Below are positions 29,437-45,140 of a DNA stretch of 55,143 nucleotides, piece by piece (the first letter of the stretch is position 1; the number at the start of each line of letters is the position of its first letter). The notes under the pieces are model-generated. The model saw nothing but the letters and a program-made list of their open reading frames with translations, had not been told where the DNA came from and did not search any database. Made by a program: the position numbers and the translations under genes. The stretch spans positions 1 through 55,143 of the forward strand of contig JACRCT010000256.1 in NCBI GenBank assembly GCA_016218885.1. The letters run 5' to 3'. Source of the DNA: Deltaproteobacteria bacterium (GTDB taxonomy: Bacteria; Myxococcota; Myxococcia; Myxococcales; UBA5297).

Positions 29437-30096
29437 CTACGGGTAGATGCGGGGGCGGTAGTCGCGGTCGGACATCAGCTCGCCCATGAAGGAGAGGGCC
29501 GTGGTGTCGCGCCGCTCCCCCGGGTAGAGCAGGACCACCGGGATGTTCCGGGTCTTGCCGTCGATGTGCTTGAGGAGCGCCGACGAGCGGAAGAACGGGT
29601 AGAGCGCTCCGGCGCGTCCCAGCAGGATGAGGGTGCGGTCGGTGTCGTCTGGCGCCTTGGCGGCGAACTCCTCGATGAGCGTGATGACGTCGGCCGCGAT
29701 GCCGCTGGGGCCCTCGACGTGCTGGGCGATGGTCTGGCGCAGGTCGTCGAGCGCCCGCTGCGGCCCGTTCGCGTTGGGGCCCTTCTCGAAGAGCCGGCGC
29801 TCCCGGTCGATGAGCCGCTGCAGCTCCTTGCCGCCGCTCGCGCGGATGCGGTCGAGGAGGAGCTTCTGCAGGGAGATGGCGAGGACGCCCCACCCTTCCG
29901 CCTTGAGATCGTCGGAGAGGTGGCGGATGAGCTTGCGGAGCTTGAACTCGTCCACCGGGCGATACGGGAGGATGGCGAACCGGTAGTTGCGCATCGTGCT
30001 GATGCGCGGGCCACCGTCGGCCAGGAGGTCCCGGCGCAGCGCGTTCACGGCCTCCTCGAGCGACGTCCGGTGGAAGAGCTCGTCCTGGTCGGTCAC
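29437..30096 (-). CDS. brxB: BrxB (DUF1788-like)
   Basis: 219 aa with MRNYRFAILPYRPVDEFKLR and IPVVLLYPG. 4-nt overlap with the brxA stop. Confidence 0.8.
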   Translation of the reverse strand: MTDQDELFHRTSLEEAVNALRRDLLADGGPRISTMRNYRFAILPYRPVDEFKLRKLIRHLSDDLKAEGWGVLAISLQKLLLDRIRASGGKELQRLIDRERRLFEKGPNANGPQRALDDLRQTIAQHVEGPSGIAADVITLIEEFAAKAPDDTDRTLILLGRAGALYPFFRSSALLKHIDGKTRNIPVVLLYPGERRDTTALSFMGELMSDRDYRPRIYP

Positions 30097-30878
30097 AGGT
30101 ATGCCTCCGCCCAGGCGGTGAGGGTCGGGTGGGTCCAGTCGAGTTCGACGAGCTTCCCCATGCGCCGGAGCTGGATGGACGGGATGGTCCTCAGCCGCTG
30201 GTCGAGGAAGCCGTCGCCGAGGCCGACCGAGGCCACGTAGGCGTTCTCGGTGAGCGAGCCCTGGTGGGTGACGCCGCGCAGCAGGTGGAGCAGGTACCCG
30301 ATGGCGATGTCGGGGACCTTCGGGAAGAGGAGCGCCCGGGGATCGCGCTTCGGCGAGACCAGGCCCGCCTCGGAGGCGGCCGAGAGGAGCTTGGAGGCGA
30401 ACTGGAGCAGCGTGGTCTCGGCCCAGCGATCCGGCCAGGTGTGGCGCAGCCAGCGGGCCACAGCCGGCCGGTCCACCTTCGGGTCCTTGAGCGTGCGCCG
30501 CTCCAGGAGGAGCTCGCCGGTGAAGCGGCGGTAGATCGGGTCGGAGAGCTGGGTGTGCCAGTGGCAGACGACCTGGCGGGTGGCCGGGTCCATGTGGCGC
30601 CAGCGGCGCAGCACGGCGAGCGCCTCCGGGAAGGCGTCGTAGCGGACTGCCAGGTAGGGCAGGAGCGTCTTCACTCGGTCGAGCGTCTTGGCACCGAACC
30701 AGCGCTGCTCGAATGCCTGGATGGCCCTAGGGCCGGGCGGCACCGCCGGGTCCACGCTGGCCCAGTAGGCGCGGGCTTCGTCGATCCCCAAGGCGAGGCG
30801 GAGGATGCGGGTGTGGATCTCGGTGGTCTCGGCGGGCCGGCGGGGCAGCGTCGGCTCCAGGCCCCCCACCTCGATCAC
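30093..30878 (-). CDS. brxA: BrxA (DUF1819-like)
   Basis: GTG start at 30878 overlapping the upstream stop (GTGA). 261 aa, helical. The Arg/Pro-rich N-terminal extension of track ORF 30093..31526 is rejected. Confidence 0.7.
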   Translation of the reverse strand: MIEVGGLEPTLPRRPAETTEIHTRILRLALGIDEARAYWASVDPAVPPGPRAIQAFEQRWFGAKTLDRVKTLLPYLAVRYDAFPEALAVLRRWRHMDPATRQVVCHWHTQLSDPIYRRFTGELLLERRTLKDPKVDRPAVARWLRHTWPDRWAETTLLQFASKLLSAASEAGLVSPKRDPRALLFPKVPDIAIGYLLHLLRGVTHQGSLTENAYVASVGLGDGFLDQRLRTIPSIQLRRMGKLVELDWTHPTLTAWAEAYL

Positions 30879-31450
30879 GGCTTCACCCGGAAGAACGGGA
30901 GGGGGTACTTCTCCGGCACCGGCACGAGGGCGGCCGCCAGGACGCGCACGGCCACCTCGAGCGGCTCTGGCATGGCGCCCTTGAGCTGCCGGCCGCCGGG
31001 GACGACGTCGTAGGCGGGGGGCTTGCCCTGTGACTGGAGCGCCTTGGCGAAGGCGTCGGGGGTGAAGGGCGCGTCGAGCTGAAGAGGCAACGCGAGCGCC
31101 TCGGCCGGCGCGGTGCCGGACCGCTTGTGCTCGGCGAGCCGCTCGGCCAGCCGCTCGTCCACCTCGAAGCCGAGGAAGAAGATCGAGCGGACCTGGTCCG
31201 GTTCGGCCATGCCCTTGCGCCCCTGCTCGTCGGCACGGCGGGCCGCCTCGCGCACCGCCTCGAGCGAGGCCCAGGCGTGGGTGCGCGGCAGGAGGCGGGC
31301 CATGAGGTCTCCTCCCCCGCTGGCGTCCACCAGGTCCGTCGGCCACCAGCCGAGGCGCTTGGTCTGCTCCTTCGACTCGCCGGCCCAGGCCACGGTGAGC
31401 TGGAGGGCGAGGATGGCGTCGAGGGTGGTGGTCTGGATTGGCCCGAGCAA
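30875..31450 (-). CDS. brxE: BrxE-like first gene of the BREX operon
   Basis: 191 aa. TTG start with GGAGA 5 nt upstream. Translationally coupled to brxA. Assignment is mainly positional. Confidence 0.5.
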   Translation of the reverse strand: MLGPIQTTTLDAILALQLTVAWAGESKEQTKRLGWWPTDLVDASGGGDLMARLLPRTHAWASLEAVREAARRADEQGRKGMAEPDQVRSIFFLGFEVDERLAERLAEHKRSGTAPAEALALPLQLDAPFTPDAFAKALQSQGKPPAYDVVPGGRQLKGAMPEPLEVAVRVLAAALVPVPEKYPLPFFRVKP

Positions 31451-31704
31451 CGGTTCTCCGGCGGGATAATTGAGGATTCTGGCACGGAGGGGGGAGGCGT
31501 GAGCCGGCCCCCGCGCGGATTGGCATCCTACAACGGCGAGGGACAGGGAGGCAGGGCGATCAGGGAGGTGACAGGCGATACCAGGGGTGTGGGTTTGCGC
31601 GGGGTCAAGATCCCTGGTGGTTCAACGCCGTCCAGCGCTGGGCCGCCCGTGGCCTGTCCCTCAAGTGGCTAGCATTCCCTGAGCACGCCCACCGGGGAGG
31701 ACCC

Positions 31705-31944
31705 ATGTCCGTCAAGAGCGAGATCAAGGGCACCATCGGCAAGACCATCACCGGCATCTTGGTGGCCGAGAACCCGCGGCTGCCGAAGCGGCAGCTGTTC
31801 CTCGTGTTCGCCGACGGCACCTACTACGAGCTCTACAGCAGCACCGGTGACCTCCACGGTGCCGGTGGCGTGGACCAGGGCGACATCGCGAAGGCCGTGG
31901 GCTACGCGAGCAAGTTCGGTGGCGAGATCACGAGGTACGAGTAG
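31705..31944 (+). CDS. small hypothetical protein (79 aa, beta-rich)
   Basis: ATG preceded by GGGGAGGA. Divergent from brxE. Ends 95 nt upstream of the first ZnR-HEPN-like gene. Confidence 0.5.
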   Translation: MSVKSEIKGTIGKTITGILVAENPRLPKRQLFLVFADGTYYELYSSTGDLHGAGGVDQGDIAKAVGYASKFGGEITRYE

Positions 31945-32039
31945 GACCGCGCCGCGGACTGCCTCCCTGTCGGAAGCGGGTGCCATAGTTTCCGCGTCTC
32001 TTGGCGGAAGCTCCAGCGAAAGCAGCTGAAGGAGGAGAG

Positions 32040-33107
32040 ATGTTCAGACACCTGCTGCGGGAGATGGAAGACCTCTCCGGCACGACTAGCATCACCATCC
32101 CGGTCGCCGCCGACGAGCGGGGCTATGTCGACAAGGAATGCCCAGTCTCGGAATGCAGGTACCAGTTCAAGGTGATGGGAGAAGACTGGGGAGCGCTCTT
32201 CCACGATGAGGCCGTCTTCTGCCCGATGTGCGGGCATGAAGCGCCGGCGACCCAGTTGTGGACGACTGAGCAGGTCGAACAGGGCCGAGCACGGGCGATG
32301 GCCTACCTGGAGGCTCGGGTTGACTCAGCACTGAGGCGTGGCGCCGCCGAGTTCAACCGAACTCATAGGTCCGATGGGTTCCTTCAGGTGTCAATGCACG
32401 TGTCGGGAGCGCCGCGCCGCGCGGTTATCCTTCCCTTGCCGGCCGCCGAGGTGCTTGAGCAGCGTGTTGCGTGCGAGAAGTGCAGCGCGCGCTACGCAGT
32501 AATCGGAGCTGCCTTCTTCTGTCCATGCTGTGGGAACAACTCAGTGGAGCGGATGTTTGAAGCGTCGCTCCAAAGAGTGCGAGCGAGGGTTGAAAACCTC
32601 GACACGATTCGATCCGCACTTCGCGAGGCAAGCGGTCCGGACGACGCAGAGCTGACGTGCAGGTCTCTTCTCGAAGATGGGCTCCAGCACTGTGTGACGG
32701 CATTCCAGCACTACGCTGAGCGGCGGTATCGCGCGATCCCCGGCACCGCCACGCCAAGGATGAACGCGTTTCAGCGCCTCGAAGAAGGAGATGCGCTCTG
32801 GCGCGCGGCGGTTGGCGCGGGCTACATCGAGTGGATTTCTCCCGACAGCCAGTCTCGCCTCCGGATCTTGTTCGAACGGCGGCACCTGCTGGCTCATCGC
32901 GATGGCATCGTCGACGACAAGTACATGGCCAAGTCAGGCGACCACGTGTACCGGACCGGCCAGCGCATCGTCGTTACAGTACGTGACGTGAGCGAACTCG
33001 TGGACATCATCCAGCGCTTGGCCGACGCCATCCGTGCCGCCACAGAGCCGAAGGACGGGGCGCCGACCATGCTGCCTGGGGCAGAACACGGAAGGGACGT
33101 TCTGTGA
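32040..33107 (+). CDS. double zinc-ribbon protein with C-terminal Rx4H (HEPN-like) domain, paralog A
   Basis: ATG 32040 after GAAGGAGGAGAG. Zinc-ribbon motifs CPVSEC..(x27)..CPMCG and CEKC..(x14)..CPCCG. C-terminal FERRHLLAHRDG, with the Rx4H motif at nt 32880-32897. Confidence 0.7.
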   Translation: MFRHLLREMEDLSGTTSITIPVAADERGYVDKECPVSECRYQFKVMGEDWGALFHDEAVFCPMCGHEAPATQLWTTEQVEQGRARAMAYLEARVDSALRRGAAEFNRTHRSDGFLQVSMHVSGAPRRAVILPLPAAEVLEQRVACEKCSARYAVIGAAFFCPCCGNNSVERMFEASLQRVRARVENLDTIRSALREASGPDDAELTCRSLLEDGLQHCVTAFQHYAERRYRAIPGTATPRMNAFQRLEEGDALWRAAVGAGYIEWISPDSQSRLRILFERRHLLAHRDGIVDDKYMAKSGDHVYRTGQRIVVTVRDVSELVDIIQRLADAIRAATEPKDGAPTMLPGAEHGRDVL

Positions 33108-34279
33108 CCGCAGGTCAATTCCAGGAAGTTGGTCACTGCGGATACGAGCTCACGGTTTCCCTCACTACCGAGAACGGTACTCGGAAGTACGCGCTAGGCA
33201 TTGGAGCGTCCTCCCCATACCCGACAGCGGTGATCGCCGTATACGCGTTGCCATTGGGCATTGCGGTAGGAACGATTCAGCTTGGCGGCATCGGGCAGCA
33301 ATGGAATCCGCCACCCTTCCCTGGCTGCCTATCAATCTTCATTGGGTCAGACACGGAAGGTCGATTCGGGCACCAATGCCCTGCGTGCGAGGGCTATTGG
33401 CGATCGGACGGCGTCGGCATCCGATGGCCTATGAGGTGCGCCTACTGCGGGGCCAAGGGCTTCGCTCATGAATTCCTGACCGATGGGCAGAGGTCGTTCG
33501 TCCAAGCGTGCTGCGAGTGGATCCAGGACGCCATCGGCTCCGAAGTCGACGGCAAGAAGACCCTGAAGCTAGACGAGGTGGCGGACCGAATCGCCCATGG
33601 AGCGGAGCAGCCGAGCTTCTACTACGTCGAAGAAAGCCAGCAGAACAAGTTCGAGTGTGCTGCGTGTGGAACGTGGAACGACGTGCTTGGCCGCTTTGGC
33701 TACTGCTCGTCATGTGGCACCTGGAATGGGCACCAGGAACTGGAGGCTGATGTCGCGCGCATACGAGACCAGATCAACACGACTTCGGCGTGGGAGCGCT
33801 CGATTCAGGAGCTCGTGGGGGCATTCGACTCCGTCGCAAGGCAGTACGCTAAGCAGCTTCTCGATTGCGTGCCGGTCTCTGCGCGGCGGCGCAAGCTCCT
33901 TGAGCGCGTCTTGTTCCACGATCTCAACGCCCGTGCTGGCGAACTCAAGACCATCTTCGACATCGACGTCCTCAAGGATTTGGGTGCGCCTGACGTGACG
34001 TTTGCGGCCATGATGTTCGAACGGCGCCACGTCTACGAGCACAACGGAGGCGAGGCGGACGAGAGGTACATCCAGGCGTCCGGTGACAGTTCGGTTCGCC
34101 CGAAGCAGGCCATCATTGAGACCCGGGAGAACGCCCACCGCCTCGCCGGGATCGTGACGAAGCTCGGACGGAACCTCCATTCCGGTTTCCATGAACTCCT
34201 CCCCGTCGAGGAGGGGCCTGTGAAGCTGGAACAAGAGCGGAAGGCCAGAATGAAGGCGCGTATGGCTAGCGGACCGTGA
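33104..34279 (+). CDS. double zinc-ribbon protein with C-terminal Rx4H (HEPN-like) domain, paralog B
   Basis: GTG start overlapping the upstream stop (GTGA). Zinc-ribbon motifs CPACEG...CAYCG and CAACG...CSSCG. C-terminal FERRHVYEHNGG, with the Rx4H motif at nt 34025-34042. Alignable to paralog A across the second ribbon and C-domain. Confidence 0.7.
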   Translation: MTAGQFQEVGHCGYELTVSLTTENGTRKYALGIGASSPYPTAVIAVYALPLGIAVGTIQLGGIGQQWNPPPFPGCLSIFIGSDTEGRFGHQCPACEGYWRSDGVGIRWPMRCAYCGAKGFAHEFLTDGQRSFVQACCEWIQDAIGSEVDGKKTLKLDEVADRIAHGAEQPSFYYVEESQQNKFECAACGTWNDVLGRFGYCSSCGTWNGHQELEADVARIRDQINTTSAWERSIQELVGAFDSVARQYAKQLLDCVPVSARRRKLLERVLFHDLNARAGELKTIFDIDVLKDLGAPDVTFAAMMFERRHVYEHNGGEADERYIQASGDSSVRPKQAIIETRENAHRLAGIVTKLGRNLHSGFHELLPVEEGPVKLEQERKARMKARMASGP

Positions 34280-34414: not shown

Positions 34415-35230
34415 ATGGCCCAATCAACCAGACCCACACCTGAGCAAATGGCGGAGGCCGAGTACCTCGGACTCACTCTGGAGAATCCCTACCAGAACCA
34501 GCCAGGGAAGCCGCTCGCCCTTGCGGTCACCACCCAGTTCGCGAAGCCCCACGGCGCCGGCCATGGAGAGCAGTTTCTACTCTTTGCTGACCACATGCTC
34601 CGAATGATGTGGGATGCGCTCGCCTACTGGACGCCGGAGCGGATTGAGCACTCGGCGCTCGCGCGGGCTGGCGAGGCGGCCGAGCCCTCGCTGTTGTCGC
34701 GGGAGGCGAGCCTCTTCGCTGCGCAGTATTTCAAGAAGTGGCTGCCTGCCCTTCACGAATGGGCTCGCCATGACCACTCCGTTCGAGCCAGTGGCCAGTA
34801 TGAGCGTGCTCTATTCGTCCGCGACCTTCTCCAGGAGGCCACCCAGGCCCTGGAGCGCCGATCGACGGCCCTTGAGGGGCGTGCACTTGATCTGCGGCTC
34901 CGGTTCGACCTTCGCCACATCCAGGCCCTGCTCGCCAGAGAGGACCTGGCGGCAGCTCTGATCTCAGCGGTTGATCAGGCCGCTTTGGCTGCTGACAAGG
35001 CGCGCTTCGATGCAGTCCGAGAGGAACTTGAGAAGGCAGCCGCTCGCCTCGAGCCCCGCCTCGGGCGCCTGGAGGATGCTATCGAGTTCCTATGGGAGCG
35101 TAGCGTCAAGCAGTGGGGACGCGAGGAACTCCTTGCCGGCGGGCCCGTTCGCAAGACCGTGGGCGCGCTCGCGGTCGGCCTTCGATCTGCTTTGATGAGC
35201 GCGGTCTTCAAGAAGTTGCTTGGTCCCTAG
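34415..35230 (+). CDS. hypothetical helical protein
   Basis: 271-aa ORF with Ala/Leu/Arg/Glu-rich helical repeats in the C-half. No motif recognised. Confidence 0.5.
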   Translation: MAQSTRPTPEQMAEAEYLGLTLENPYQNQPGKPLALAVTTQFAKPHGAGHGEQFLLFADHMLRMMWDALAYWTPERIEHSALARAGEAAEPSLLSREASLFAAQYFKKWLPALHEWARHDHSVRASGQYERALFVRDLLQEATQALERRSTALEGRALDLRLRFDLRHIQALLAREDLAAALISAVDQAALAADKARFDAVREELEKAAARLEPRLGRLEDAIEFLWERSVKQWGREELLAGGPVRKTVGALAVGLRSALMSAVFKKLLGP

Positions 35231-35356
35231 CGCCCTCCGCGAGCGGGTAGTGGGATACACGCCGCCTTCGAACTTCCTGGGCTCAATTCGGTACAAGAAC
35301 TGAGTCGCGATCTCCGCGTTCTCGCGATCATCGGCGCGACCGATGCTGAGCACACC

Positions 35357-36331
35357 ATGTCCTTGGAAGGTCAGACTACGAACTTCACGTGTGGCCCCGC
35401 CAGCCTACGAATCGCCAGGTCGCTTCTGGGCGGCGGGCTCCAATACGACAATACCGAGATTCAGGAAGACGACGTTCGTAGGAAGTCGGGCTTGGCCCGG
35501 CGGGAAGTGATGTTCGGTGGCACCAGCGAGTTCGCCATGAAGAGAGCGGCGCGCGCGATGGGAATGACAATTCGGATTCGCGACTACGTGAAGCGGGATC
35601 CGGAGCGGGTGCTGCGAGACATCAGGATCGCCACGGCGAAGGGCCATCCTTGCATCGTCTGCGTGCACGGCCAGGACGAGGGGTATTTCCACTGGATGTG
35701 CGTCGCGAGCGTGGTGGGCCAGTGGGCAGTCGTCCTGGATCCTGCCATGACCGACTGGTGGCTCCCGGAGAGAACTTTCTGGACGGCCGATCGCAGCCAC
35801 TCGCTGACTCCCTCCCTGATGCGGGTGAGCAGACTGCTCCAGTGGATCGACCCCGGCGACGAGCTCGCGGAGAAGGTCCTGGAGCAGTACGGGACCAGCC
35901 ATCAGGTGCTCGAGGTCGCGGTGGCTCCCGGTCAAGGGCATCGCTACGTTCGCGGCACCATCACCGAGGAAACGGTGAGGGCGATGCGCCGAGACCTCAC
36001 GATGGCTTCGGACTTCGACCAGGTCATCCAGGACCTGAAGGAGACCTTCTCCTTCTCATGCAGTCGTGCCCCGGCCGGTGCTGTGCCGGCGGGGCGGTTC
36101 CTGCGTCGCAATGCCGAGCGCCTGACCAAGCTAGTGACAGAACGCGTGGTTAACTCCGCCTGCGACGCGAGGTCAGTCCGGGAGCAGATCCGGAGGCTGG
36201 TACGTGTGGCCAGTGGGTACGCTTTCTACGTGCGCCGAGGCGACGAGCCCAAGGTCTTGGCGGCCCTCGCCTTCCACCTGGGATGGCACTCCTGCAGTGT
36301 CGCCTACGGCATCGAGGAAGGGGCGGCGTAG
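35357..36331 (+). CDS. C39-like papain-fold cysteine peptidase domain protein with unknown C-terminal domain
   Basis: 324 aa. N-terminus QTTNFTCGPASLRIA (Gln-x5-Cys context of C39-like peptidases), then GYFHWMCVASVVGQWAVVLDP (candidate His and Asp). The last 170 aa or so are unassigned. Confidence 0.6.
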   Translation: MSLEGQTTNFTCGPASLRIARSLLGGGLQYDNTEIQEDDVRRKSGLARREVMFGGTSEFAMKRAARAMGMTIRIRDYVKRDPERVLRDIRIATAKGHPCIVCVHGQDEGYFHWMCVASVVGQWAVVLDPAMTDWWLPERTFWTADRSHSLTPSLMRVSRLLQWIDPGDELAEKVLEQYGTSHQVLEVAVAPGQGHRYVRGTITEETVRAMRRDLTMASDFDQVIQDLKETFSFSCSRAPAGAVPAGRFLRRNAERLTKLVTERVVNSACDARSVREQIRRLVRVASGYAFYVRRGDEPKVLAALAFHLGWHSCSVAYGIEEGAA

Positions 36332-36445
36332 AGGATGCGCGTCCCGTCGAGTGGGAAGCACCAGCACCAGACTGGCCGAGATGGGGCGCGCCTCGCCGCA
36401 AGCCGCCAAACCAGGTCGGGGCTCACGTCTATCTTGCAATAGAGG

Positions 36446-36832
36446 TCATCGACCGACCCCACCTTCAGCGGTCGGTTCCGGCGGTAGGACCTCGAGCTCC
36501 ACTTCCTTCAGGTCGACGTCGACGCCCCATCGCTGGCCGAGCTCGCCGTAGACCTTGCGGCGCTGCTCCTGGTCGAGGTCCACCGCACTCATCCAGAGTA
36601 GAACGCCCGCCTTGTCCATCCGCTGGAGGTCGAAGGTCTCGATGAGCTGGACGGGCGACAGCGCGAGAAGCGCTTCTCTAGAGACGGATCGCCGGCGCAT
36701 GGCCCGGAGACGCCGCGCCTTGAAGACGTCGACAAGCACGGCGATGAGCAGGACGACGCCAAGCCAGCCAACAAACAGCATCAGGTCTGACACCAGGCCC
36801 CAGCGCGCCCGTGGGTGATGCAGCGAGGACAT
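36446..36832 (-). CDS. single-pass membrane protein (hypothetical)
   Basis: 128 aa. TM segment LMLFVGWLGVVLLIAVLVDVF followed by a basic patch. Confidence 0.45.
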   Translation of the reverse strand: MSSLHHPRARWGLVSDLMLFVGWLGVVLLIAVLVDVFKARRLRAMRRRSVSREALLALSPVQLIETFDLQRMDKAGVLLWMSAVDLDQEQRRKVYGELGQRWGVDVDLKEVELEVLPPEPTAEGGVGR

Positions 36833-36959
36833 TTCCCGGGCTTCCGAGCTCTCCCGCCGCCACTACGGGGGACGATACCCGTTCAACGGACAGTCGGCGA
36901 TGTCGGGGCACGTGGGCGATGTAGGCCACGACTCAGGCGAGTCTGGCTGGCGCATCGCC

Positions 36960-37229
36960 CTACGGCCTGGTGCTTCGCCCAGAGCGCCTGCTTGGCCGGC
37001 CCGGCCTGGATGGCTCCAGCTTGGCCGGCCTCAACAGCACTGCCGGCTTCACGCCCAGGGCCTTCGCCAGCAACTCCAGGCTGCTCACGTGGAGGTCCAC
37101 GCTGCCGCGCTCGATTCTCTGCAGGTGGCGACCGTTGAACCCTGCGGCCTCCGCGAGCTCCGCTTGGCTGAGCCCAAGCTTCACGCGAAGTCGCCGAGTG
37201 TTGGCGCCGATGTAGGAGAGAAGCGGCAT
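36960..37229 (-). CDS. XRE-family HTH transcriptional regulator
   Basis: 89 aa. IGANTRRLRVKLGLSQAELAEAAGFNGRHLQRIERG is a canonical Cro/C1-type HTH. Confidence 0.8.
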   Translation of the reverse strand: MPLLSYIGANTRRLRVKLGLSQAELAEAAGFNGRHLQRIERGSVDLHVSSLELLAKALGVKPAVLLRPAKLEPSRPGRPSRRSGRSTRP

Positions 37230-37326
37230 CCCGTAGTCGGGTACCGCGCTCTTCCCGGCAGATATGTATCACTAGGAGCCGTGTTACTGTCCGTCCTCAT
37301 CGGCGCCATGTCCGTGGCGCGGTCAG

Positions 37327-37367
37327 ATTGAGGGATACGAGTGCCGGACCTCGAGCCTGCCCTCAAT
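37327..37367. promoter_or_regulatory. inverted repeat in the XRE / TPR divergent region
   Basis: attgaggg (37327-34) and ccctcaat (37360-67), perfect 8-bp arms (9/10 when extended) with a 25-nt spacer. Confidence 0.4.
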
Positions 37368-37432
37368 TTGCAGCCGGGGGGAGCCTTGGAGCAGAAGGCG
37401 GCGCCGCAAGACCCATTCTCTGGGGGAACACC

Positions 37433-39013
37433 GTGAACACACTGCACCGATCACTGATGCTCATCGGAACAATGGTCGCCGCGAGTCTACCCGCCGTACC
37501 GCGCGCCAGCCCCGCGGACGCTGCCAACGAGGCGAAGGGGCACCAGATCTCTGAGGCGCGCAAGGCGATCGCCAAGACAGGAATAGACTACTGGTTCATC
37601 TCACCCGAGGCCCGGGGAGGCAGCAAGGAGTGGTCCAATCAGTTGACTCTCTCTGAGACGGAGGCCGGGAGAACATTGAGCGCGCCTGGCTATATCAAGC
37701 AGGGATACTGCCGTCTGTTTGCCGCGGCACTTCAGGGCAAGGTCATCTCAATGACGGAGGCCGACGTCAGGCAGGTTGTTGGCCCAGGTACTATCTGGAT
37801 TCCACTTCGCCATGGCGATGAAGTCTGCCACCTGCTTGTTGAGGACATCGACCCTTCAGTGACGGACCAAATCGCAAGGTACTTGCCCCACCGGGCCTAT
37901 GAGGTCGGACCGGAGGTGAAGGCGCGGGTCGTAGGCGTTGGCATGGCACCGCTCGGCAACGGGGACCGTCTCCCGGTTATCAGGCTGGTCGCGCAGCGGG
38001 TTTGTCTTCCCTACTGCAAGTCCCCCGCGTCACCTAATCCGGCCACACAGACTCCAGGCGCACAACCAACAAAGAAGGTGGCGAAGCCGGTCATCCAAAG
38101 CGATTCCCAGGGCCCATCACCTTCGGAGGCTGACCGACGCATTGCAATGAACCTGCGCGTCGTCGCCAAAGAACCGAAAAGCGTGGCAGCTTGGATCTCT
38201 CTCGGCAACGACTACTTTGATACCCGTCAGATCCAGCGCTCTATCGATGCATACGGCGAGGCGCTCAAACTCCAGCCCAACAACCCAGACGTACTGACGG
38301 ACCAAGGCGTTATGTACGGCCTGCAATCCAACTTGGATCGGGCCCTCGCCAACTATGAACGTGCTCAGGAGCTCGCTCCGACCCACCTGGCAAGCGCCTT
38401 CAATATCGGCCTCGTCTATGCCCGACGCGGAAGCGACCCTACTCGCGAGGCGGCAGCATGGCGGAGGGTGATCGAGCTCGCTCCCGATAGCGAGCAGGCC
38501 GGCACTGCGCGGAAAGCGCTTCAGGAACTTGGCGAGGCAGAGCGGCAATCGGCGCTAGACAGTGTCCCGTCTACTCTTGGTGCGCAGAGTCGGGCCGACA
38601 TTGAAAAGGCCATCCTCGCTATGACTCAAGGCAAGGACGACTCGACCTGCATTCAGTACTGGCTCAGAGATCTCAATGGGGACGGGGTACCAGAGGTGTT
38701 TTCCATCCCGCAGACCTTTACCAACTGCGGGAACGCCTCCAGATGCATGGTGGACTTGCTGACCTTCAGTAGAGACGGCAGCTTGATGGGCATTGGATCG
38801 TTCGAATCGGAAGTGACAGCGTTCGCTGCCCTTCCAGGTAAGCCATGGAGCGATGTCGTGGCGTTCACCGAACGTGGCGCGTCCCGCTATCGGTTCGAGG
38901 GGACCAGCTACATCCAGGTCAAGGAGAGTGCTGCCGCCACTCAACGCGCATCAAAGGGGGCTAGCGCATGGGGCTTGAGCAGTGGCTTCAGCGAACTTGG
39001 AAGGTGTAGGTAG
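37433..39013 (+). CDS. secreted TPR-repeat protein with FG-GAP-like C-terminal region
   Basis: Signal-like LMLIGTMVAASLPAVPRASPADA. TPR repeats AWISLGNDYFD..AYGEALKLQPNNPDVL..ANYERAQELAP. DLNGDGVPEVF motif. Start is either GTG 37433 or ATG 37457. Confidence 0.7.
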   Translation: MNTLHRSLMLIGTMVAASLPAVPRASPADAANEAKGHQISEARKAIAKTGIDYWFISPEARGGSKEWSNQLTLSETEAGRTLSAPGYIKQGYCRLFAAALQGKVISMTEADVRQVVGPGTIWIPLRHGDEVCHLLVEDIDPSVTDQIARYLPHRAYEVGPEVKARVVGVGMAPLGNGDRLPVIRLVAQRVCLPYCKSPASPNPATQTPGAQPTKKVAKPVIQSDSQGPSPSEADRRIAMNLRVVAKEPKSVAAWISLGNDYFDTRQIQRSIDAYGEALKLQPNNPDVLTDQGVMYGLQSNLDRALANYERAQELAPTHLASAFNIGLVYARRGSDPTREAAAWRRVIELAPDSEQAGTARKALQELGEAERQSALDSVPSTLGAQSRADIEKAILAMTQGKDDSTCIQYWLRDLNGDGVPEVFSIPQTFTNCGNASRCMVDLLTFSRDGSLMGIGSFESEVTAFAALPGKPWSDVVAFTERGASRYRFEGTSYIQVKESAAATQRASKGASAWGLSSGFSELGRCR

Positions 39014-39139
39014 CCCGCGCAGTAACAGGCGAGAGCTTTACACTGAATGAAGCGAAGCAGTGCCTCAGTGGTCACCGCGACACCAAGAGTCCAATTTCAG
39101 GACCTGGAGCGCACAGCCACACTTCAGAATGGAGCCACC

Positions 39140-39604
39140 ATGATCCGTTACATAGTCGCGTCGGCGCTTGCAGCCATGCTACCTAATGTGGCGAGGGCGG
39201 ATGTCATCAATCCTGGGCGTCCCGACGTGACATTTCGCGTCTGCATGTCTTACAAGGGCACCGTCATGCCAGAGGCATTGTACGAGACGCGTTCGTACCC
39301 GCCCACCAGCGCGGTGTCGTGCGTGCGGCAGGGTGATGTTAAGAATCCGATGGTATGCTCGGTTGAACTCAAGAGCGGTGACCCCGAGGACTTCTACGGA
39401 TCCGACCGAGCCTTCATCGACCTCTCGCCGGGGATTCACGAATTCGAAGGAAGGTCGGCGCTGGACCCTTCGCGACTGGTGAAGGTTAGACTCAGCATCG
39501 TGAAGACGGGAACGGGATATGCGTGGCGCCTTGTCGACTTCACTCTTACTGTCCTGCCGGCGAAGGGCACGAAAAGCCCCATAACCGTCACGGTGTGCAA
39601 ATAG
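39140..39604 (+). CDS. small secreted protein (hypothetical)
   Basis: ATG 39140 after GGAG. Signal peptide MIRYIVASALAAMLPNVARADV. Lower G+C than surroundings. Confidence 0.5.
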   Translation: MIRYIVASALAAMLPNVARADVINPGRPDVTFRVCMSYKGTVMPEALYETRSYPPTSAVSCVRQGDVKNPMVCSVELKSGDPEDFYGSDRAFIDLSPGIHEFEGRSALDPSRLVKVRLSIVKTGTGYAWRLVDFTLTVLPAKGTKSPITVTVCK

Positions 39605-39757
39605 TCAGAGGACCTGTGACAACATGCCCGCGTGGGCCAGCACATTGAGGTGGCGCGTGGCTCGTGAATAGTTTCGGCGCGGCCTCTGGGGCGATGCTCG
39701 TTGTCGCTTTGGTGGTAGTTGGTATAGCGGGCTCGCATCCCGCGTGTCGTGCGCCAA

Positions 39758-40186
39758 CTATGCTACGAAACTATCCGAGTAGCGCAGACGCAGTTCAGCC
39801 GCCACGTCGTTCTCGAAGCTCGACAAGCGGCTGGGCTCCACGTGCTTCGTGAAGTACTCTCGCAGGTCGAGACGCTGTACGCCGTACAGCAAGACCTCCG
39901 CGAGATGGTCGTGATGCTCGGCTTCCAGCCACCTCTCCGCCGCCGCAATGCGCTCTCGGAGGGGGATGCGCTCGTTGAACTGGACTGCCAGCCCAGCCTG
40001 CCGCCTTGACTCACGCTCCGCCGTCGGCATCGGCGCTCCAACTGAGCCGCATGCAGCCAGATAGCGAGCATGGTAGCGGCGATGCTGAGCCACCTCGGCG
40101 GGGACGAGCGTCGAATAGGCGAAGTCGCAAATGCGGCACCGGCCGTCGCCTGCGAGGTTCGGGTGCGGAACGAAGTTGGACTTCAC
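39758..40186 (-). CDS. hypothetical protein with CxxC...HxxxH zinc-finger-like motif
   Basis: GTG 40186 overlapping the upstream stop (GTGA). 142 aa. Motif GRCRICDFAYSTLVPAEVAQHRRYH. Confidence 0.45.
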   Translation of the reverse strand: MKSNFVPHPNLAGDGRCRICDFAYSTLVPAEVAQHRRYHARYLAACGSVGAPMPTAERESRRQAGLAVQFNERIPLRERIAAAERWLEAEHHDHLAEVLLYGVQRLDLREYFTKHVEPSRLSSFENDVAAELRLRYSDSFVA

Positions 40187-40500
40187 AGAGAACTCCTCTG
40201 GACGCTGGAGTTGCGCCGGGATTGCCAGTTGGCGCACTGGAAGCAGGCGAAACGAGATCTGTTGGCATCGCGGGGGACCACACCGATCACGCTTGTCTGC
40301 CCCGCGCAGCTTGGGCACACCAGCCAGCGGCGAACTGCACCGAATGAGCCTGCGGAGGGCACGCGGACAATCTTCACGATTGCTGACACGCCACCGGCCT
40401 GCACATGAACCTTCTTCAGGGTGGCGAACTCCCTCGGCGAAAACTGGGCACGGATCTGACGGATCGAGATCCGCGTTACGGCGTCGCGCAGGAGAGTCAC
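40183..40500 (-). CDS. small zinc-ribbon protein (hypothetical)
   Basis: GTG 40500 overlapping the upstream stop (GTGA). 105 aa. Motif CPSCAG...(x21)...CFQC. Confidence 0.45.
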   Translation of the reverse strand: MTLLRDAVTRISIRQIRAQFSPREFATLKKVHVQAGGVSAIVKIVRVPSAGSFGAVRRWLVCPSCAGQTSVIGVVPRDANRSRFACFQCANWQSRRNSSVQRSSL

Positions 40501-40958
40501 TGGCCACCTCCGGCGAAGTCGACACGGTCCGCGTGCCCGATCACCACGCTGGGCCTCTGGCGTAAAGAGCTCTCCACGCCGAGCTGCCTCACCGCCATCA
40601 CCATCCGCTTGGCCACGCCGTCGAGGGCGCGAGAGAGTGCGGCCACCGCTTCGAAGTCCCGCGCCGCCACACGCTGAGCAAGCAGGCCCTCTAGGACGCG
40701 GAGCTGGCTCCGGCAGGCCGCGGCGGTGCGGGCCAGCAGGCGGACCCGGGCGCCATCCCCCGCAGGCCCGGCGAGCGCCTCGGCAAGCTGGCGCGTGTCC
40801 TCGACGAGTCCCTGGATGGTTGCTTGGTCGCCGGAGACGAAACCAATGATGGCGGCCTGGTCGAATGGCGTCAGGCCCAGCGCGCGGGTGGGCATGGGCG
40901 GGGCGGGGGTCGGCGAGACGGTGAGGCAGCGGTCTTCCGCGGAAGGTGAGGTGTGCAT
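40497..40958 (-). CDS. hypothetical helical protein
   Basis: ATG 40958 within track ORF 40497..41261. 153 aa. The upstream part of the track ORF is not protein-like. Confidence 0.4.
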   Translation of the reverse strand: MHTSPSAEDRCLTVSPTPAPPMPTRALGLTPFDQAAIIGFVSGDQATIQGLVEDTRQLAEALAGPAGDGARVRLLARTAAACRSQLRVLEGLLAQRVAARDFEAVAALSRALDGVAKRMVMAVRQLGVESSLRQRPSVVIGHADRVDFAGGGQ

Positions 40959-41078
40959 GACGAAGCATAGGTGGTGGCGCCGGCGGCACCACATCCTCCC
41001 CACTGCCTCCTTGACCGGGTGGGGTGGCCGCCGCCCTCCCCGCCCGGCTGGACGGGCCGCGTGTCCTCGACTGGGCGA

Positions 41079-41192
41079 TGTGACGTCGCCGGCAGCGCAA
41101 GAGGTCACAGCGGCCGCGGGCAATTTCCACCAGTAAGTACGGGACCCTGACCCAAGCCCGCAATCCGGAACTTCGATTGTGACCGTGTGACC
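41079..41192. repeat. cluster of four TGTGAC(C) motifs (iteron/operator-like)
   Basis: TGTGACg at 41079-85, GGTCACA (inverted) at 41103-09, and tandem TGTGACCgTGTGACC at 41178-92. All lie in the 355-nt non-coding gap between the helicase gene and the downstream operon. Confidence 0.5.
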
Positions 41193-41313
41193 ACCTCCCT
41201 GCTGGGGAATTTCTTGGAAATGATCTTCGTGGGTGGCTTGGTAGCGGCTACAGGGCCACAACGGACGCGCCGGAGGCGGCGTGTGCCCCCGGCGGTCCCG
41301 TCGTTTCAGGGAG

Positions 41314-42933
41314 TTACGTCGATCCCGTCGCGCCCAGGGTCTGTGACCAGGCGCCGGTCACACGGGGATACCGGTACGCCAGGGGCCGGGTCGCGCCTGC
41401 GATGATGAGTCGCTCCTTGGCCCGGGTGGCGCCGACGTACGCAACGCGGTTCTCGGCCTCGGCCCCGCCATGGCGCTGGTCCAGGTGCTCCATGTAGGTA
41501 GCCCTGGTCATCTCCGGCACCAGCACCACGGTGTCGGCTTCCCGCCCCTTCGACCCGTGGATGGTGGTCAGGCGCACCTTGGGCTCCACCAGGCTGCCAT
41601 GGCGGGCATGGATCGCCTCGAGGTAGCGCCTGGTCGCGCCGTCCAGCCGTTTCAGCATGCCCAGCGGTCCCTCGGCCGCCGCCACCGACAGCAGGGTGCC
41701 GCCCTGCAGCAGGTTTTTGATGACGCTGGGCGCCAGCTCCCCGTCGAGCTGCGCCGCCCTGGCCTTCACGCCACGAGGGAGCAGGCTCGCACCGTTGCTC
41801 GGGATGAACTCCAGCATCGCCTGGAGGTCGTCGGCCTGGACGTTCCACCCGTAGGCCACCGCCCGGGCGGAGCGCACCGCGGCGAGAAGCTGCGGGCCCA
41901 GGGGGTTCGCGGCCCCGCCACCCTCCACCACGTAGGCCACGCCGGCCGCCTGCAGCTGCTCAGCGACGCCCTCCAGGAAGCAGCGGTTGCGCACCAGGAC
42001 GAACGTCGGGGAGGCCCCGTCGACCTGGCTCAGCGCGGCCTCGAGCGGCAGGTAGTCGACGGAACCGCCGACCTGTCGCGGCGTGTAGGTCTTCCTGATG
42101 CGGTTCTGGTTGCGGGCGACGAGCTGCATGGCCAGCGCGTGCACCGTGGCTGGGACCCGGTACGACTGCGCCAGGACCGTCGTCGGGTGAGCCCGGGACA
42201 GCGCCAGGAGCCAGCCGGGATCCGCACCCTGGAAGCCGTAGATGGCCTGGTCATCATCCCCCGCCACGTAGACCTGCCGGCAGTGTCCGAACCACGCCTG
42301 CACCGCCCGGACCTGCAAGGGGGAGAGGTCCTGCGCCTCGTCCACGAAGGCCACCTTCACGTCGGGCCGCAGGCCCCGGGCGAGCGCCTCCTCAAGCATG
42401 TCGTTGAAGTCGACCACCCGCTTGTCACGCTTGAACGAGACGTAGCGGCTGACGAAGCGGCGGAAGGAGCCGGCGACGACCCGCGCCGGAGCCCGCGCCA
42501 GCGTGGTCTCAACATCCAGCCCCCGGTTCCGCCCCCATTCGTAGGTGGCGCGGAGGAGGTCGTCCGTCGTCTGCCGGGGCGCCGAGCCGAGCGGGTCCTC
42601 CATGTTGGTCCAACCCACCGCGGTGAAGCGGTAGCCGTGGGCGCGACCGAACTCGCTCCAGTGCCGGCCGTCCAGGACCCGATCCGGAGCGAGGTTGAGG
42701 AGGCGGAACGCCGTGCCGTGAATTGTGCGGAGCCAGGGGAAGTCCTTCCCGTCGATGTCGAACCGCCGTCCCACCCTGGCGAGGACCTCTTCCCTAGCCG
42801 CCCGGGTGAAACTCACGAAAGCGACGTCCTCTGGGCTGGTGTCCCCGGACAGCTCGGACTCCAGGCGCTGGAGCAGCGCCGTGGTCTTCCCCGTGCCGGG
42901 GGGCCCCAGCAGGACCTCGAGGTTGGAGGTCAC
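41314..42933 (-). CDS. UvrD/Rep-like superfamily 1 helicase
   Basis: 539 aa. Walker A LLGPPGTGKTT, Walker B AFVDEAQDLSP, C-terminal TIHGSKGREADTVVL and VGATRAKERL. 4-nt overlap with prim-pol. Confidence 0.85.
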   Translation of the reverse strand: MTSNLEVLLGPPGTGKTTALLQRLESELSGDTSPEDVAFVSFTRAAREEVLARVGRRFDIDGKDFPWLRTIHGTAFRLLNLAPDRVLDGRHWSEFGRAHGYRFTAVGWTNMEDPLGSAPRQTTDDLLRATYEWGRNRGLDVETTLARAPARVVAGSFRRFVSRYVSFKRDKRVVDFNDMLEEALARGLRPDVKVAFVDEAQDLSPLQVRAVQAWFGHCRQVYVAGDDDQAIYGFQGADPGWLLALSRAHPTTVLAQSYRVPATVHALAMQLVARNQNRIRKTYTPRQVGGSVDYLPLEAALSQVDGASPTFVLVRNRCFLEGVAEQLQAAGVAYVVEGGGAANPLGPQLLAAVRSARAVAYGWNVQADDLQAMLEFIPSNGASLLPRGVKARAAQLDGELAPSVIKNLLQGGTLLSVAAAEGPLGMLKRLDGATRRYLEAIHARHGSLVEPKVRLTTIHGSKGREADTVVLVPEMTRATYMEHLDQRHGGAEAENRVAYVGATRAKERLIIAGATRPLAYRYPRVTGAWSQTLGATGST

Positions 42934-45140
42934 GGTGTCACCTCGGCGCCGAAGTCAGGGTTGTCACTCGACGGCGACTCCGTCGCCGGCTCGGTCTGCC
43001 CGGTGGCCTCGTAGGCGACCGCCGGTGCGGGCGTCGGCCAAGGTGGCGGAGCTGAGGGGCTGGCCGCCGGCGCGGGATTGACCGGCTGGTTCTTGAGCTT
43101 GGCTGCCCAAGCCTTGACCGTGTCCTTGGGCCCGGGACCGTGCCGCTGCGTCTTGTATGCCAGTCCCAGGTTCTTGAGGTGACGGGAGATGTCGTCGACC
43201 CGGACCTTTTCCAACATGATGTTGACCTTCCGCGAGATCGCGGCCGTCTTAAAGAGCACCTTGCCGTGGACCACGAAGCCCTTGCCGTCATCCAGATCTT
43301 CGATGGAGTCCCCGTGGATCAGCTCATCCACGGCGCGCTTGACGGCCTCGTGCAGGGCGCCGTCGGTGGTGCCCTCGGCGGGGAGGTCGATGATGGTGGC
43401 GGCCTTCATCCATGCCGCGACGATCCGCTCCCACTTGAGGCTGGCGTTCTTGCCCTTCGGCAGCTGGGCGAACAGCTGCGTGCACTCGAAGTACCGCTTC
43501 CTGAACCCGCTCGGGTTCAACAGGTGGTCGGTGGAGAACTTGTGCCAGACGCCGCCGATCTGGAGTTCATGCCGAGGGGTCTCGCCGGTGAAGATCCTCA
43601 CCTGCTGGACCCCGAGATGGGCGCCAGCTCCGCCGGGCAGCGCCGGTGACGCTGGCGTGGTCGGCGCGGCGCCGGCCGTGGACAGCGCTGCTCCGCCCGG
43701 TGCAGGCGCCACCGGCGTGGAGAGCTGCAGGGCCGCCGCTCCCCCGTCCTCGCCCTCGTTCACCCTGGCCAGCGCGGCCAGGACCTTCTCGCGGATGTAC
43801 TCGGCGCCGCGCAGGAGAGCGTGCCTGTCGGGCCGACGCGCCAAGGCAGTCGCAAGCGTTGACGGGTCCTCGACGCCCTTCTTCACCAGCATCATGAGGA
43901 AGCCGGCGTCGTACCCCTCGGGCGTCGCCGGCAGCCGCTGGCCGGCCGCGTCGCACGCGGGCTTCCCGGTCCCGTCCAACAGGGTCTGCAGCCGGACGTG
44001 GCGGGCCACCAGGTCGCCCACCTCGGGCGGCATCGCGTCGCCGATGCGGATGAGGTGCTCGGGCACGGTGCCTTGCCCGAGCGGGCGCTGCACCACGCCA
44101 GCGTCGACCACCGCTTCGGGCTCGGGCTCCTCGAGCTCACAGGCATCGTCGTCGACAAGGAACCCCTCGCGCCGGAGCAGGTCGCGCCGCTCCATGCCAG
44201 CCTCGAAGGCATCCAGGTCGAGTTGGTCGCCGTGCCAGCAGCCGGCACCCTCCAGGCCGACCCCAGTCTCGCCGTGGCCCGTAGAGAAGCAGGCCCACCG
44301 CGTCGCGCTGTCCCCCAGCTTGCCGAAGCACCCATGGTGGTCGCAGGCGGGGCAGCGGCGCGACCGGCCAGCGAAGGAGAGCGGATTGGCGGCGTTGTAG
44401 GCGTCCACCGCGGCCTGGAACCCGGTCATGGGCCGGTCGGGGCGCGGGCCAGAGACCCGGGTCTCCTCGCTCTCCTCCAGGCCGAGATAGGCGCCAACCT
44501 TATCCCGAAGGTCGTCGGGGAGCTCGCCGAGCCGGGCTTCAGCCTCGCAGGCCAGTGCGACGGCCTCCACCTCGCTCCACCCGTGCCGCACCAACAGGGT
44601 GGCGACGGCCAGCCGGACCATGTGGACGCGGAGTTCGGCCGCCTCGATCTCCATGATGGGGAGCTCGTTCTCGAACTGGACCTTTTCGCCCGAGGGGTGG
44701 GTCGAGCCGGGGAAGACGGTCTGGAGCGCCTCGGCCCGAAGCTCCAGGAGGGTCTTGGGCGCCCCCCCGGAGCCGTTCACGTCCGTGAACTTCAGCACCT
44801 TGGCGCCCTTCGCCCGGTAGAGGCGGTGGGAGCTCGGCCGAGATGCCCGGCCAAAGGTGCGGGTGCCTGGCAGGAAGTGATGTGCGAGGCGAACGGCCTC
44901 GTCGCAGTCGAGGTCGGCGTCCACCAGCTCGCCGCTGGCGGCGCCGAGGATGATCCCGATGTTGCCCAAGTTGTCGCCGAACCAATTGGCCACCGTGTCC
45001 ATGGTGACCTTCAGGTCCTTCCAGTCCTTGGTGATGGGCCCCTTCGCCTTGTAGGGGACGGGGATCGGGCTGAATCCTTCGTTGATGTAGGTCTTGGCCC
45101 ACTCACGAGGAGTGGAGTTGCTTCCGTTGAACGTGTTCAC
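42930..45140 (-). CDS. bifunctional DNA primase-polymerase (prim-pol) domain protein
   Basis: 736 aa with a GTG start. N-terminus GFSPIPVPYKAKGP...NIGIILGAASGELVDADLD (prim-pol signature). Zinc motif CPACDHHGC. Long Ala/Pro linker. Confidence 0.8.
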   Translation of the reverse strand: MNTFNGSNSTPREWAKTYINEGFSPIPVPYKAKGPITKDWKDLKVTMDTVANWFGDNLGNIGIILGAASGELVDADLDCDEAVRLAHHFLPGTRTFGRASRPSSHRLYRAKGAKVLKFTDVNGSGGAPKTLLELRAEALQTVFPGSTHPSGEKVQFENELPIMEIEAAELRVHMVRLAVATLLVRHGWSEVEAVALACEAEARLGELPDDLRDKVGAYLGLEESEETRVSGPRPDRPMTGFQAAVDAYNAANPLSFAGRSRRCPACDHHGCFGKLGDSATRWACFSTGHGETGVGLEGAGCWHGDQLDLDAFEAGMERRDLLRREGFLVDDDACELEEPEPEAVVDAGVVQRPLGQGTVPEHLIRIGDAMPPEVGDLVARHVRLQTLLDGTGKPACDAAGQRLPATPEGYDAGFLMMLVKKGVEDPSTLATALARRPDRHALLRGAEYIREKVLAALARVNEGEDGGAAALQLSTPVAPAPGGAALSTAGAAPTTPASPALPGGAGAHLGVQQVRIFTGETPRHELQIGGVWHKFSTDHLLNPSGFRKRYFECTQLFAQLPKGKNASLKWERIVAAWMKAATIIDLPAEGTTDGALHEAVKRAVDELIHGDSIEDLDDGKGFVVHGKVLFKTAAISRKVNIMLEKVRVDDISRHLKNLGLAYKTQRHGPGPKDTVKAWAAKLKNQPVNPAPAASPSAPPPWPTPAPAVAYEATGQTEPATESPSSDNPDFGAEVTP

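Follow-up and report, generated by a model that had tools for sequence, protein, structure and literature searches.

The question raised by this locus is what is encoded by two overlapping genes of foreign composition that lie beside a BREX operon in a 55-kb contig (JACRCT010000256.1; 55,143 nt, hereafter the window) of a deltaproteobacterial metagenome-assembled genome (MAG). It appears that the two genes, termed A and B here, are diverged members of one superfamily, in which a double zinc-ribbon module and a HEPN-type ribonuclease (RNase) domain are carried by a single polypeptide and whose genes behave as mobile stand-alone immunity genes. The superfamily is distributed sporadically in bacteria and some archaea, where it is found in defence islands, integrative elements, plasmids and prophages, and sometimes inside a BREX operon. 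The interpretation that we favour, by a modest degree, is that this widespread double-zinc-ribbon HEPN superfamily consists of autonomous anti-phage RNases acting by abortive infection, and that in the window two paralogs have been inherited as one cassette.

Gene A (32040..33107, + strand; locus tag HY901_07895) encodes 355 amino acids (aa) from an ATG that is preceded by an AAGGAGG Shine-Dalgarno sequence, and this start is backed by homologues, in which M1 and F2 are nearly invariant at the N-terminus. Gene B (33104..34279, + strand) is an open reading frame (ORF) of 391 aa that is homologous to A and begins with a GTG placed over the TGA stop codon of A (...TTCT GTGA CC...), which gives a 4-nt overlap. 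The GTG start is likewise supported by homologues, since B-family proteins are ~390 aa long and can be aligned from residue 5-6 onwards. For the same reason the NCBI annotation of gene B (HY901_07900), with 282 aa, is considered too short; its start lies too far downstream, so that a portion of zinc ribbon 1 and the conserved beta domain at the N-terminus are missed. Given the start/stop overlap, A and B are translationally coupled in this window. The G+C content is 0.629 for A and 0.609 for B, compared with 0.688 for BREX, and the G+C content at third codon positions (GC3) is 0.74 in both genes, compared with 0.96 in BrxC. Because both genes show the same foreign GC3, A and B appear to have been acquired together, and because GC3 differs so sharply within the window, the pair appears to have been acquired separately from BREX. 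An earlier reading of the bare DNA (the first-pass annotation) had described the same ORFs with their GTGA junction, as well as a lower G+C content of the cluster, and both were recovered here (4 nt of overlap; 0.61-0.63 vs 0.69 for BREX). Between 31300 and 35400, where elements such as type III toxin-antitoxin (TA) RNAs were sought, there was no Rfam match and repeats were at chance level only, and no informative promoter or terminator consensus was found at the A/B locus.

The two proteins share a common plan. A is composed of an N-terminal helix, zinc ribbon 1, a long helix, a linker, zinc ribbon 2 and a C-terminal HEPN-like helical domain, and B of a B-specific N-terminal beta domain, zinc ribbon 1, a helix, zinc ribbon 2 and a HEPN-like domain. 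AlphaFold2 (AF2) models of the two (pLDDT 90.2 for A and 89.2 for B) both contain two beta-hairpin zinc ribbons with a long helix between them, followed by an all-alpha C-terminal domain (C-domain). In A, zinc ribbon 1 (32139..32231, +; C34-x4-C39...C61-x2-C64) has its cysteines placed on the beta-hairpins of the model, and zinc ribbon 2 (32472..32531, +; C145-x2-C148...C161-x2-C164) is the segment of lowest entropy in the whole A family. The corresponding ribbons of B are located at 33377..33448 (+; C92-x2-C95...C112-x2-C115) and 33656..33715 (+; C185-x2-C188...C201-x2-C204). All eight cysteines of each protein are invariant in the alignments used for judging residue conservation, which comprised 61 A-family and 59 B-family sequences, and when entropy is calculated by segment, the ribbons and the active site show the strongest conservation in both families. 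Two CxxC...CxxC ribbons per protein had been reported from the bare sequence; two ribbons are indeed present in both, with the correction that the first knuckle of A is C-x4-C.

A and B were also described there as diverged paralogs that align over the second ribbon and the C-domain. The paralogy was confirmed by BLASTP (22% identity over 313 aa, E=7e-14) and by comparison of the family profiles with hhalign (99.5% probability, E=7e-23), and the alignment proved more extensive than first described, as it spans both ribbons and the C-domain. The additional N-terminal beta-rich domain of B (33131..33328, +; residues ~10-75, AF2 strands E14-58) is not present in A; it is conserved in the B family and has no match in Pfam or the PDB.

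Within the C-domains, a putative catalytic R-x4-H motif is found at 32880..32897 (+) in A (RHLLAH, i.e. R281-H282-x3-H286) and at 34025..34042 (+) in B (RHVYEH, i.e. R308-H309-x3-H313), which are exactly the positions noted at the outset. The arginine and both histidines are invariant in the 61 A-family and 59 B-family sequences, and the R-H-x3-H form of the motif is retained in all of the top 120 matches of each family. A 17-nt direct repeat (94% identical; 32869-32885 and 34014-34030) corresponds to the FERRH-coding motif of both genes; it was considered as a regulatory element and rejected, being merely shared active-site coding sequence.

The HEPN-like domain of A (32544..33047, +; residues ~169-336) is indicated by structure comparison and by its homologues. 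In a Foldseek search of the PDB, ranks 1-8 for A were all HepT HEPN toxins (prob 0.93-1.0, target template modelling (TM) score 0.55-0.61), the best being 7bxo, 6m6u and 5yep (prob up to 1.0, target TM 0.61, E 1e-2 with the full-length query), and Csm6 and other HEPN toxins appeared further down the list. The Pfam family HEPN_RiboL-PSP was matched by 4 of the 61 A homologues at E<=0.1 (best 2.2e-5), and a match to it is precomputed on the A homologue P0049. The HEPN-like domain of B (33728..34267, +; residues ~209-388) aligns with that of A, and gene B has no match among the curated HEPN families in Pfam; the HEPN-like fold proposed for B derives mainly from homology to A. A C-terminal HEPN-like RNase domain, as had been suggested for both proteins, is thus likely in A and B, with the invariant motif common to both and the structural matches leading for A. 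By sequence, the A and B family profiles are related to no solved structure: the B profile retrieved nothing from the PDB sequences, and the matches of the A profile (designer PPR repeat proteins) were discarded as spurious sums of many weak repeat matches. Likewise, Pfam, NCBIfam and PADLOC contain no named family that full-length A or B would match, the sole significant match being that of the ribbon module to the PADLOC candidate model PDC-M14A.

Both families are widespread. There are >440 homologues of A, at roughly 45-76% identity and across phyla, and >800 full-length homologues of B at roughly 50% identity; across phyla, members of both families are ~45-55% identical. The A profile matches 2,478, 1,159 and 403 clusters (50% identity) at E<=1e-3, 1e-10 and 1e-30, respectively, and finds 285 loci in 185,579 species-representative genomes, including those of ANME-1 and Methanophagales archaea. 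In viral sequences, A was present in only 9 IMG/VR contigs and B in only 6, and no A homologue was found in cultured phage genomes. Some A-family proteins deviate in architecture: P0257, P0258, P0295 and P0323 (485-558 aa) have C-terminal extensions of ~170-200 aa, P0259 bears additional Cys-rich ribbons at its C-terminus, and in P0359 a long unrelated N-terminal region replaces ribbon 1.

Do the two proteins then act together? The first-pass annotation had proposed a heterodimeric HEPN RNase, and a corresponding model would be an obligate A/B heteromer, with a composite HEPN site to which each protein contributes one Rx4H motif and with the beta domain of B as a second sensing input. In its favour, the 4-nt start/stop overlap, implying translational coupling, recurs in the window, L095, L089/L090 and L091/L092, the catalytic and Cys residues are intact in both genes, and the two share a foreign GC3. 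Against this, a B homologue was missing within 6 kb of the A homologue in 79 of the 80 genome loci that were fetched, and all 11 B loci outside the clade of the window (L004, L005, L006, L096 and L097, which derive from genomes or metagenomes, and six viral contigs) contain B alone, without A. The sole exception among the 80 is Marinobacter profundi (L036), in which A and B are separated by an unrelated gene; this gene was considered as a third paralog and dismissed (hhalign, 2.5% probability). In L087/L088, A is intact and only a remnant of the N-terminus of B persists in a 112-aa ORF. The overlapping tandem is limited to the close relatives of the window named above (at least 65% identity). 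As A and B scarcely co-occur elsewhere, the heterodimer proposed initially is not upheld, and an obligate heteromer is regarded as rather unlikely. The 112-aa ORF (L087 7042-7380; L088 2682-3020) keeps the first ~29 residues of a B-type protein at 62% identity, apparently because B has decayed in this member of the tandem clade. In the close A relative P0006, an insertion sequence (IS) element directly follows the gene.

No other gene takes the place of a partner. When 449 neighbouring ORFs from ~75 loci were clustered all-vs-all, no family occurred in more than four loci. This absence of a recurring neighbour, together with the solo occurrence, indicates that each family is normally a one-gene unit and that the tandem is lineage-specific. 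A lineage-specific A/B hetero-oligomer in the window is possible. The adjacent genes of the window were also examined as candidate partners. The first-pass annotation had pointed to a 79-aa gene 95 nt upstream of A on the same strand, and this ORF is present (31705..31944, +) and looks coding; as an antitoxin or partner it was rejected, with no homologue in 112 related loci, no family match and a singleton cluster. Its GC3 of 0.95 is host-like, near that of BrxC and unlike that of A and B, and the ORF probably falls outside the module. The downstream genes at 34415-35230 and 35357-36331 were set aside as well, being conserved with A or B nowhere, including the closest tandem contig (L095).

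The setting of the homologues is that of defence and mobile-element genes. Eight of the ten large genes immediately beside A homologues encode BrxC, PglX, type I/IIG/III restriction-modification (RM) enzymes, Dsr1, a methyltransferase or PDC-S06. The neighbour censuses also contain RM methylases and endonucleases (including Eco57I), PglX/BrxC, SMODS/CBASS cyclases, AbiEii, integrases and transposases. Other homologue loci lie on integrative/conjugative elements, plasmids and a prophage, and the plasmid matches are mostly on conjugative plasmids. The defence-associated setting of the window, with BREX and IetAS, is repeated among the homologues; a synteny survey of the kind proposed at the outset returned defence and mobile-element neighbours and restricted the A/B pairing to close relatives.

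BREX in particular invites a second explanation, namely that the pair works with or backs up BREX, for example by becoming active once BREX has been inhibited. In the window, the pair is adjacent to and divergent from BREX, as the first-pass annotation had it, with BrxE (30875..31450, - strand; E=2.5e-74) heading the operon. In two other loci BrxC and PglX flank an A-family gene of the same orientation, with gaps of 9 and -1 nt (L056 6001-6984, Lachnospiraceae MAG; L062 3220-4218, Oribacterium sinus), and ~3 of 75 homologue loci have PglX or BrxC among the neighbours; moreover, the PDC candidates of PADLOC, to one of which the ribbon module is related, are defined by embedding in BREX, DISARM or type I RM. 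However, consistent co-occurrence with the BREX core was not found. Most loci are without BREX and have RM I/IIG/III, Dsr1, CBASS, AbiE or mobile-element genes as neighbours, and in the window itself the pair lies outside the operon, in the divergent orientation and with a GC3 that points to separate acquisition. A role as a BREX accessory is accordingly judged very improbable.

A third explanation dispenses with immunity. The genes could represent a selfish toxin or addiction module, or a ribbon protein for RNA processing or regulation in mobile elements, in which R-x4-H would serve binding. It would be compatible with the annotation of both proteins as hypothetical only, with the strongly conserved ribbons, which suit nucleic-acid binding, and with several loci in conjugative or integrative elements beside ArdC, relaxase and integrase genes. 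In addition, a gene encoding a fusion of HTH_3 and Peptidase_M78 (ImmA/IrrE-like) lies directly upstream of the A-family genes in L001, L087 and L089. On the other hand, no conserved antitoxin-like partner was found, the 79-aa ORF not being conserved; the immediate neighbours are mostly defence genes; and the invariance of the arginine and both histidines across distant phyla and archaea argues for catalysis. This explanation is thought to be improbable.

The HTH_3-Peptidase_M78 gene (L001 6523-7650, L087 4897-5997, L089 4898-5989) is preceded by a ~210-aa gene in these three A contexts, and it also heads a B-containing cassette in L004 (1-812). It was rejected as a universal partner, as only weak partial similarity to it was detected in 2 of 80 genome loci and the window lacks it. 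We regard this gene as an occasional regulator rather than a component, and it may be shared by defence cassettes in that role.

How, then, do A and B relate to known systems? The first-pass annotation could not match the architecture to any. This stands insofar as no named family covers the full-length proteins, and it needs qualification in that two defences that combine zinc fingers with HEPN, RAZR and HEC-08, had already been described. The architecture class is precedented, while the double-ribbon HEPN family itself is uncatalogued. RAZR (ring-activated zinc-finger RNase; PD-T7-4) provides defence by abortive infection from one gene, whose product has a Cys4 zinc ribbon at the N-terminus and a HEPN RNase at the C-terminus (PMC13017515). 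Its R/H catalytic residues are required, and the protein is non-toxic until triggered; oligomerisation around phage ring proteins, driven by the trigger, then positions the HEPN sites, and single-stranded RNA is cleaved non-specifically (PMC13017515). The zinc finger of RAZR is hypervariable and sets phage specificity (PMC13017515). With zinc ribbon(s) followed by a C-terminal HEPN domain on one protein, RAZR is the best functional analogy for A and B. The families are nevertheless different. At E<=1, A and B match neither the PADLOC model of PD-T7-4 nor Pfam DUF4145, and no RAZR entry is among the top 50 Foldseek matches of either; the A and B profiles also gave no match to RAZR in a 2026 copy of the PDB sequences, in which the presence of 9Y9C and 9Y6U was not checked. 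RAZR has a single zinc finger, whereas A and B have two ribbons parted by a long helix, and B has the beta domain as well; the catalytic residues of RAZR are R146...H154, in contrast to R-x4-H in A and B; and the zinc finger is the most variable region of RAZR, whereas the ribbons of A and B have the lowest entropy apart from the active site.

HEC-08 (Hma-embedded candidate 08) is a validated single-protein defence in which a HEPN domain like that of SO_3166 (5YEP) is combined with zinc-ribbon-like domains, as in A and B; its Rx4-6H histidine is essential, and it was found embedded in another defence system (bioRxiv 10.1101/2024.01.29.577857). The domain order is reversed in HEC-08, with an N-terminal DUF3644 HEPN domain and C-terminal zinc fingers, and A and B match neither HEC-08 nor DUF3644. 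The HEPN domains of A and B also fall into another clade than those of RAZR and HEC-08. Since RAZR and HEC-08 have both been validated, proteins that join zinc fingers to HEPN domains can be regarded as bona fide defences.

As regards the HEPN domain itself, the best structural match to the C-domain of A is provided by HepT/MntA-type toxins (SO_3166; 5yep, 6m6u, 7bxo), with which the Rx4H motif is held in common. HepT toxins are dimeric HEPN RNases of ~130 aa, and the gene next to them encodes the antitoxin, an MNT nucleotidyltransferase (NTase), by which they are neutralised. In contrast, no NTase match was found among the neighbours in the window and no conserved partner in ~75 loci, and A and B add large N-terminal ribbon modules. 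The only HEPN sequence family with a profile signal to the A family is RiboL-PSP-HEPN (PF18735), for which a distant relationship to the abortive-infection proteins AbiD/AbiF has been described (Anantharaman et al. 2013, PMC3710099); A and B lack the L-PSP fusion, and the signal of the window A protein is below threshold. The HEPN survey notes fusions of HEPN domains with zinc ribbons, and the double-ribbon architecture is not described there (PMC3710099).

The ribbon module has a relative of its own. The PDC-M14A model (152 positions) matches residues 16-167 of A, a stretch that includes zinc ribbon 1, over model positions 4-150 (E=1.8e-13), and residues 77-206 of B (E=1.2e-3); all other PADLOC matches of A and B at E<=1 are weak noise only. 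PDC-M14A is one of the PADLOC PDC candidates, which were nominated for embedding in BREX, DISARM or type I RM (bioRxiv 10.1101/2024.01.29.577857). PDC-M14 is a candidate two-gene cassette (FAM_02625>>FAM_00494) with 247 occurrences, defined in a supplement and without functional annotation, and no mention of 'PDC-M14' was found in the main texts of the literature. No M14B match was obtained among the five proteins of the cluster that were scanned against PADLOC. Its PDC-M14A component is a stand-alone protein of ~155 aa, whereas in A and B the ribbon module is fused to HEPN. The stand-alone double-ribbon family (~155 aa) has 1,111 database matches, of which the named ones are from actinobacteria. 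In Microbacterium and Rhodococcus plasmids (L093 3039-4450 and L094 3114-4414), a double-ribbon gene of 137-155 aa (PDC-M14A E ~1e-15) overlaps the 3′ end of a CAP12/Pycsar-type TIR gene, which hints that the double-ribbon module is able to serve different effectors.

A mechanism for A and B can be outlined by analogy with RAZR, HepT and Csm6, from which the RNase activity, oligomerisation, trigger and abortive infection are transferred. Briefly, each protein would self-associate via its HEPN domain, so that a composite Rx4H active site is created. In the uninfected cell the protein would be kept inactive, and phage infection would switch it on; the activated protein would then cleave RNA and stop translation, resulting in abortive infection. 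Regulation or ligand binding would fall to the conserved double-ribbon module, with a protein or a nucleic acid as the ligand. In the window, A and B would most probably be two autonomous sensors of different specificity in one cassette beside BREX.

Several points weigh against this interpretation. Both families are known here from sequences and predicted models, and the HEPN assignment is only moderately strong, given the E-value of 1e-2 for the best Foldseek match of full-length A. The window A protein reaches only E 0.41 and 11 bits with PF18735 (HEPN_RiboL-PSP), below the 28.4-bit cutoff, and for full-length B only the HEPN toxins 8yuf, 8xdj and 8xeh attain a target TM of 0.46-0.49, at weak E-values of 1.5-3. 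The association with defence islands was judged by neighbour censuses rather than a statistical background model. The 4-nt A/B overlap is kept in four independent contigs of the window clade at 65-80% protein identity, so that the two genes may be functionally coupled there. Finally, the conserved ribbons, as they appear in the alignments, fit poorly with a fast-evolving sensor of phage proteins, and the sensor role that the first-pass annotation gave to the zinc ribbons is not supported. That the ribbons are among the most conserved segments points to a structural role, to the binding of RNA or to a ligand that is itself conserved.

The last point leads to a broader proposal, in which the double ribbon is a portable trigger-sensing or adaptor module with interchangeable effectors (a fused HEPN domain in the A and B families, a separate TIR protein on actinobacterial plasmids), making up a modular immune superfamily across bacteria and archaea. 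Recognition would be directed, unlike in RAZR, at an invariant ligand, for instance a nucleic-acid structure or a host component, as the ribbons are conserved and not hypervariable, and an A/B hetero-oligomer would have evolved in the clade of the window. We consider this broader proposal conceivable yet doubtful, and retain autonomous abortive-infection RNases as the preferred interpretation.

With regard to the remainder of the window, the BREX operon has the order BrxE-A-B-C-PglX-(RES)-PglZ-BrxD-BrxHI, which differs from the textbook type orders. A 477-aa ORF at 30093-31526 (-) is over-extended, as BrxA matches only its residues 230-477, and BrxE is encoded in a separate frame. Nested between PglX and PglZ is a 411-aa gene (20536-21771, -) with a Pfam RES domain (E=3e-18) and no PADLOC match, a possible NAD-targeting toxin or defence gene embedded in BREX. 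Further left, an IetA/IetS pair (10572-14142, +; PADLOC E=2e-145 and 2e-303) sits beside BREX, so that the left half of the window represents a multi-system defence island. On the other side, a stretch of lower G+C content runs on past A and B from 34415 to 45140. It contains a 271-aa ORF without matches, a 324-aa protein that weakly resembles C39-like peptidases (DUF3335, E=4e-5) and a tetratricopeptide repeat (TPR) protein (37328-39013), as well as, on the minus strand, a UvrD/GajB-like helicase (41314-42933) and a Prim-Pol protein (42930-45140). These surroundings suggest that A and B are located at the edge of an integrated mobile element.

Anti-phage RNases that combine a zinc finger with HEPN and have an unusual mode of activation have only lately been demonstrated (RAZR, 2026). 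The superfamily described here is separate, sizeable and uncharacterised, and it uses the building blocks of RAZR in another arrangement and with conserved ribbons. If its members prove to be defence RNases, they would constitute a new catalogue family that is now missed by PADLOC, Pfam and NCBIfam. They would then provide a comparison case for how HEPN enzymes stay silent and are subsequently triggered, as well as an example of a defence gene found repeatedly in or beside BREX. The tandem in the window offers a ready system for asking whether paralogous sensors work independently of each other or form a heteromer.

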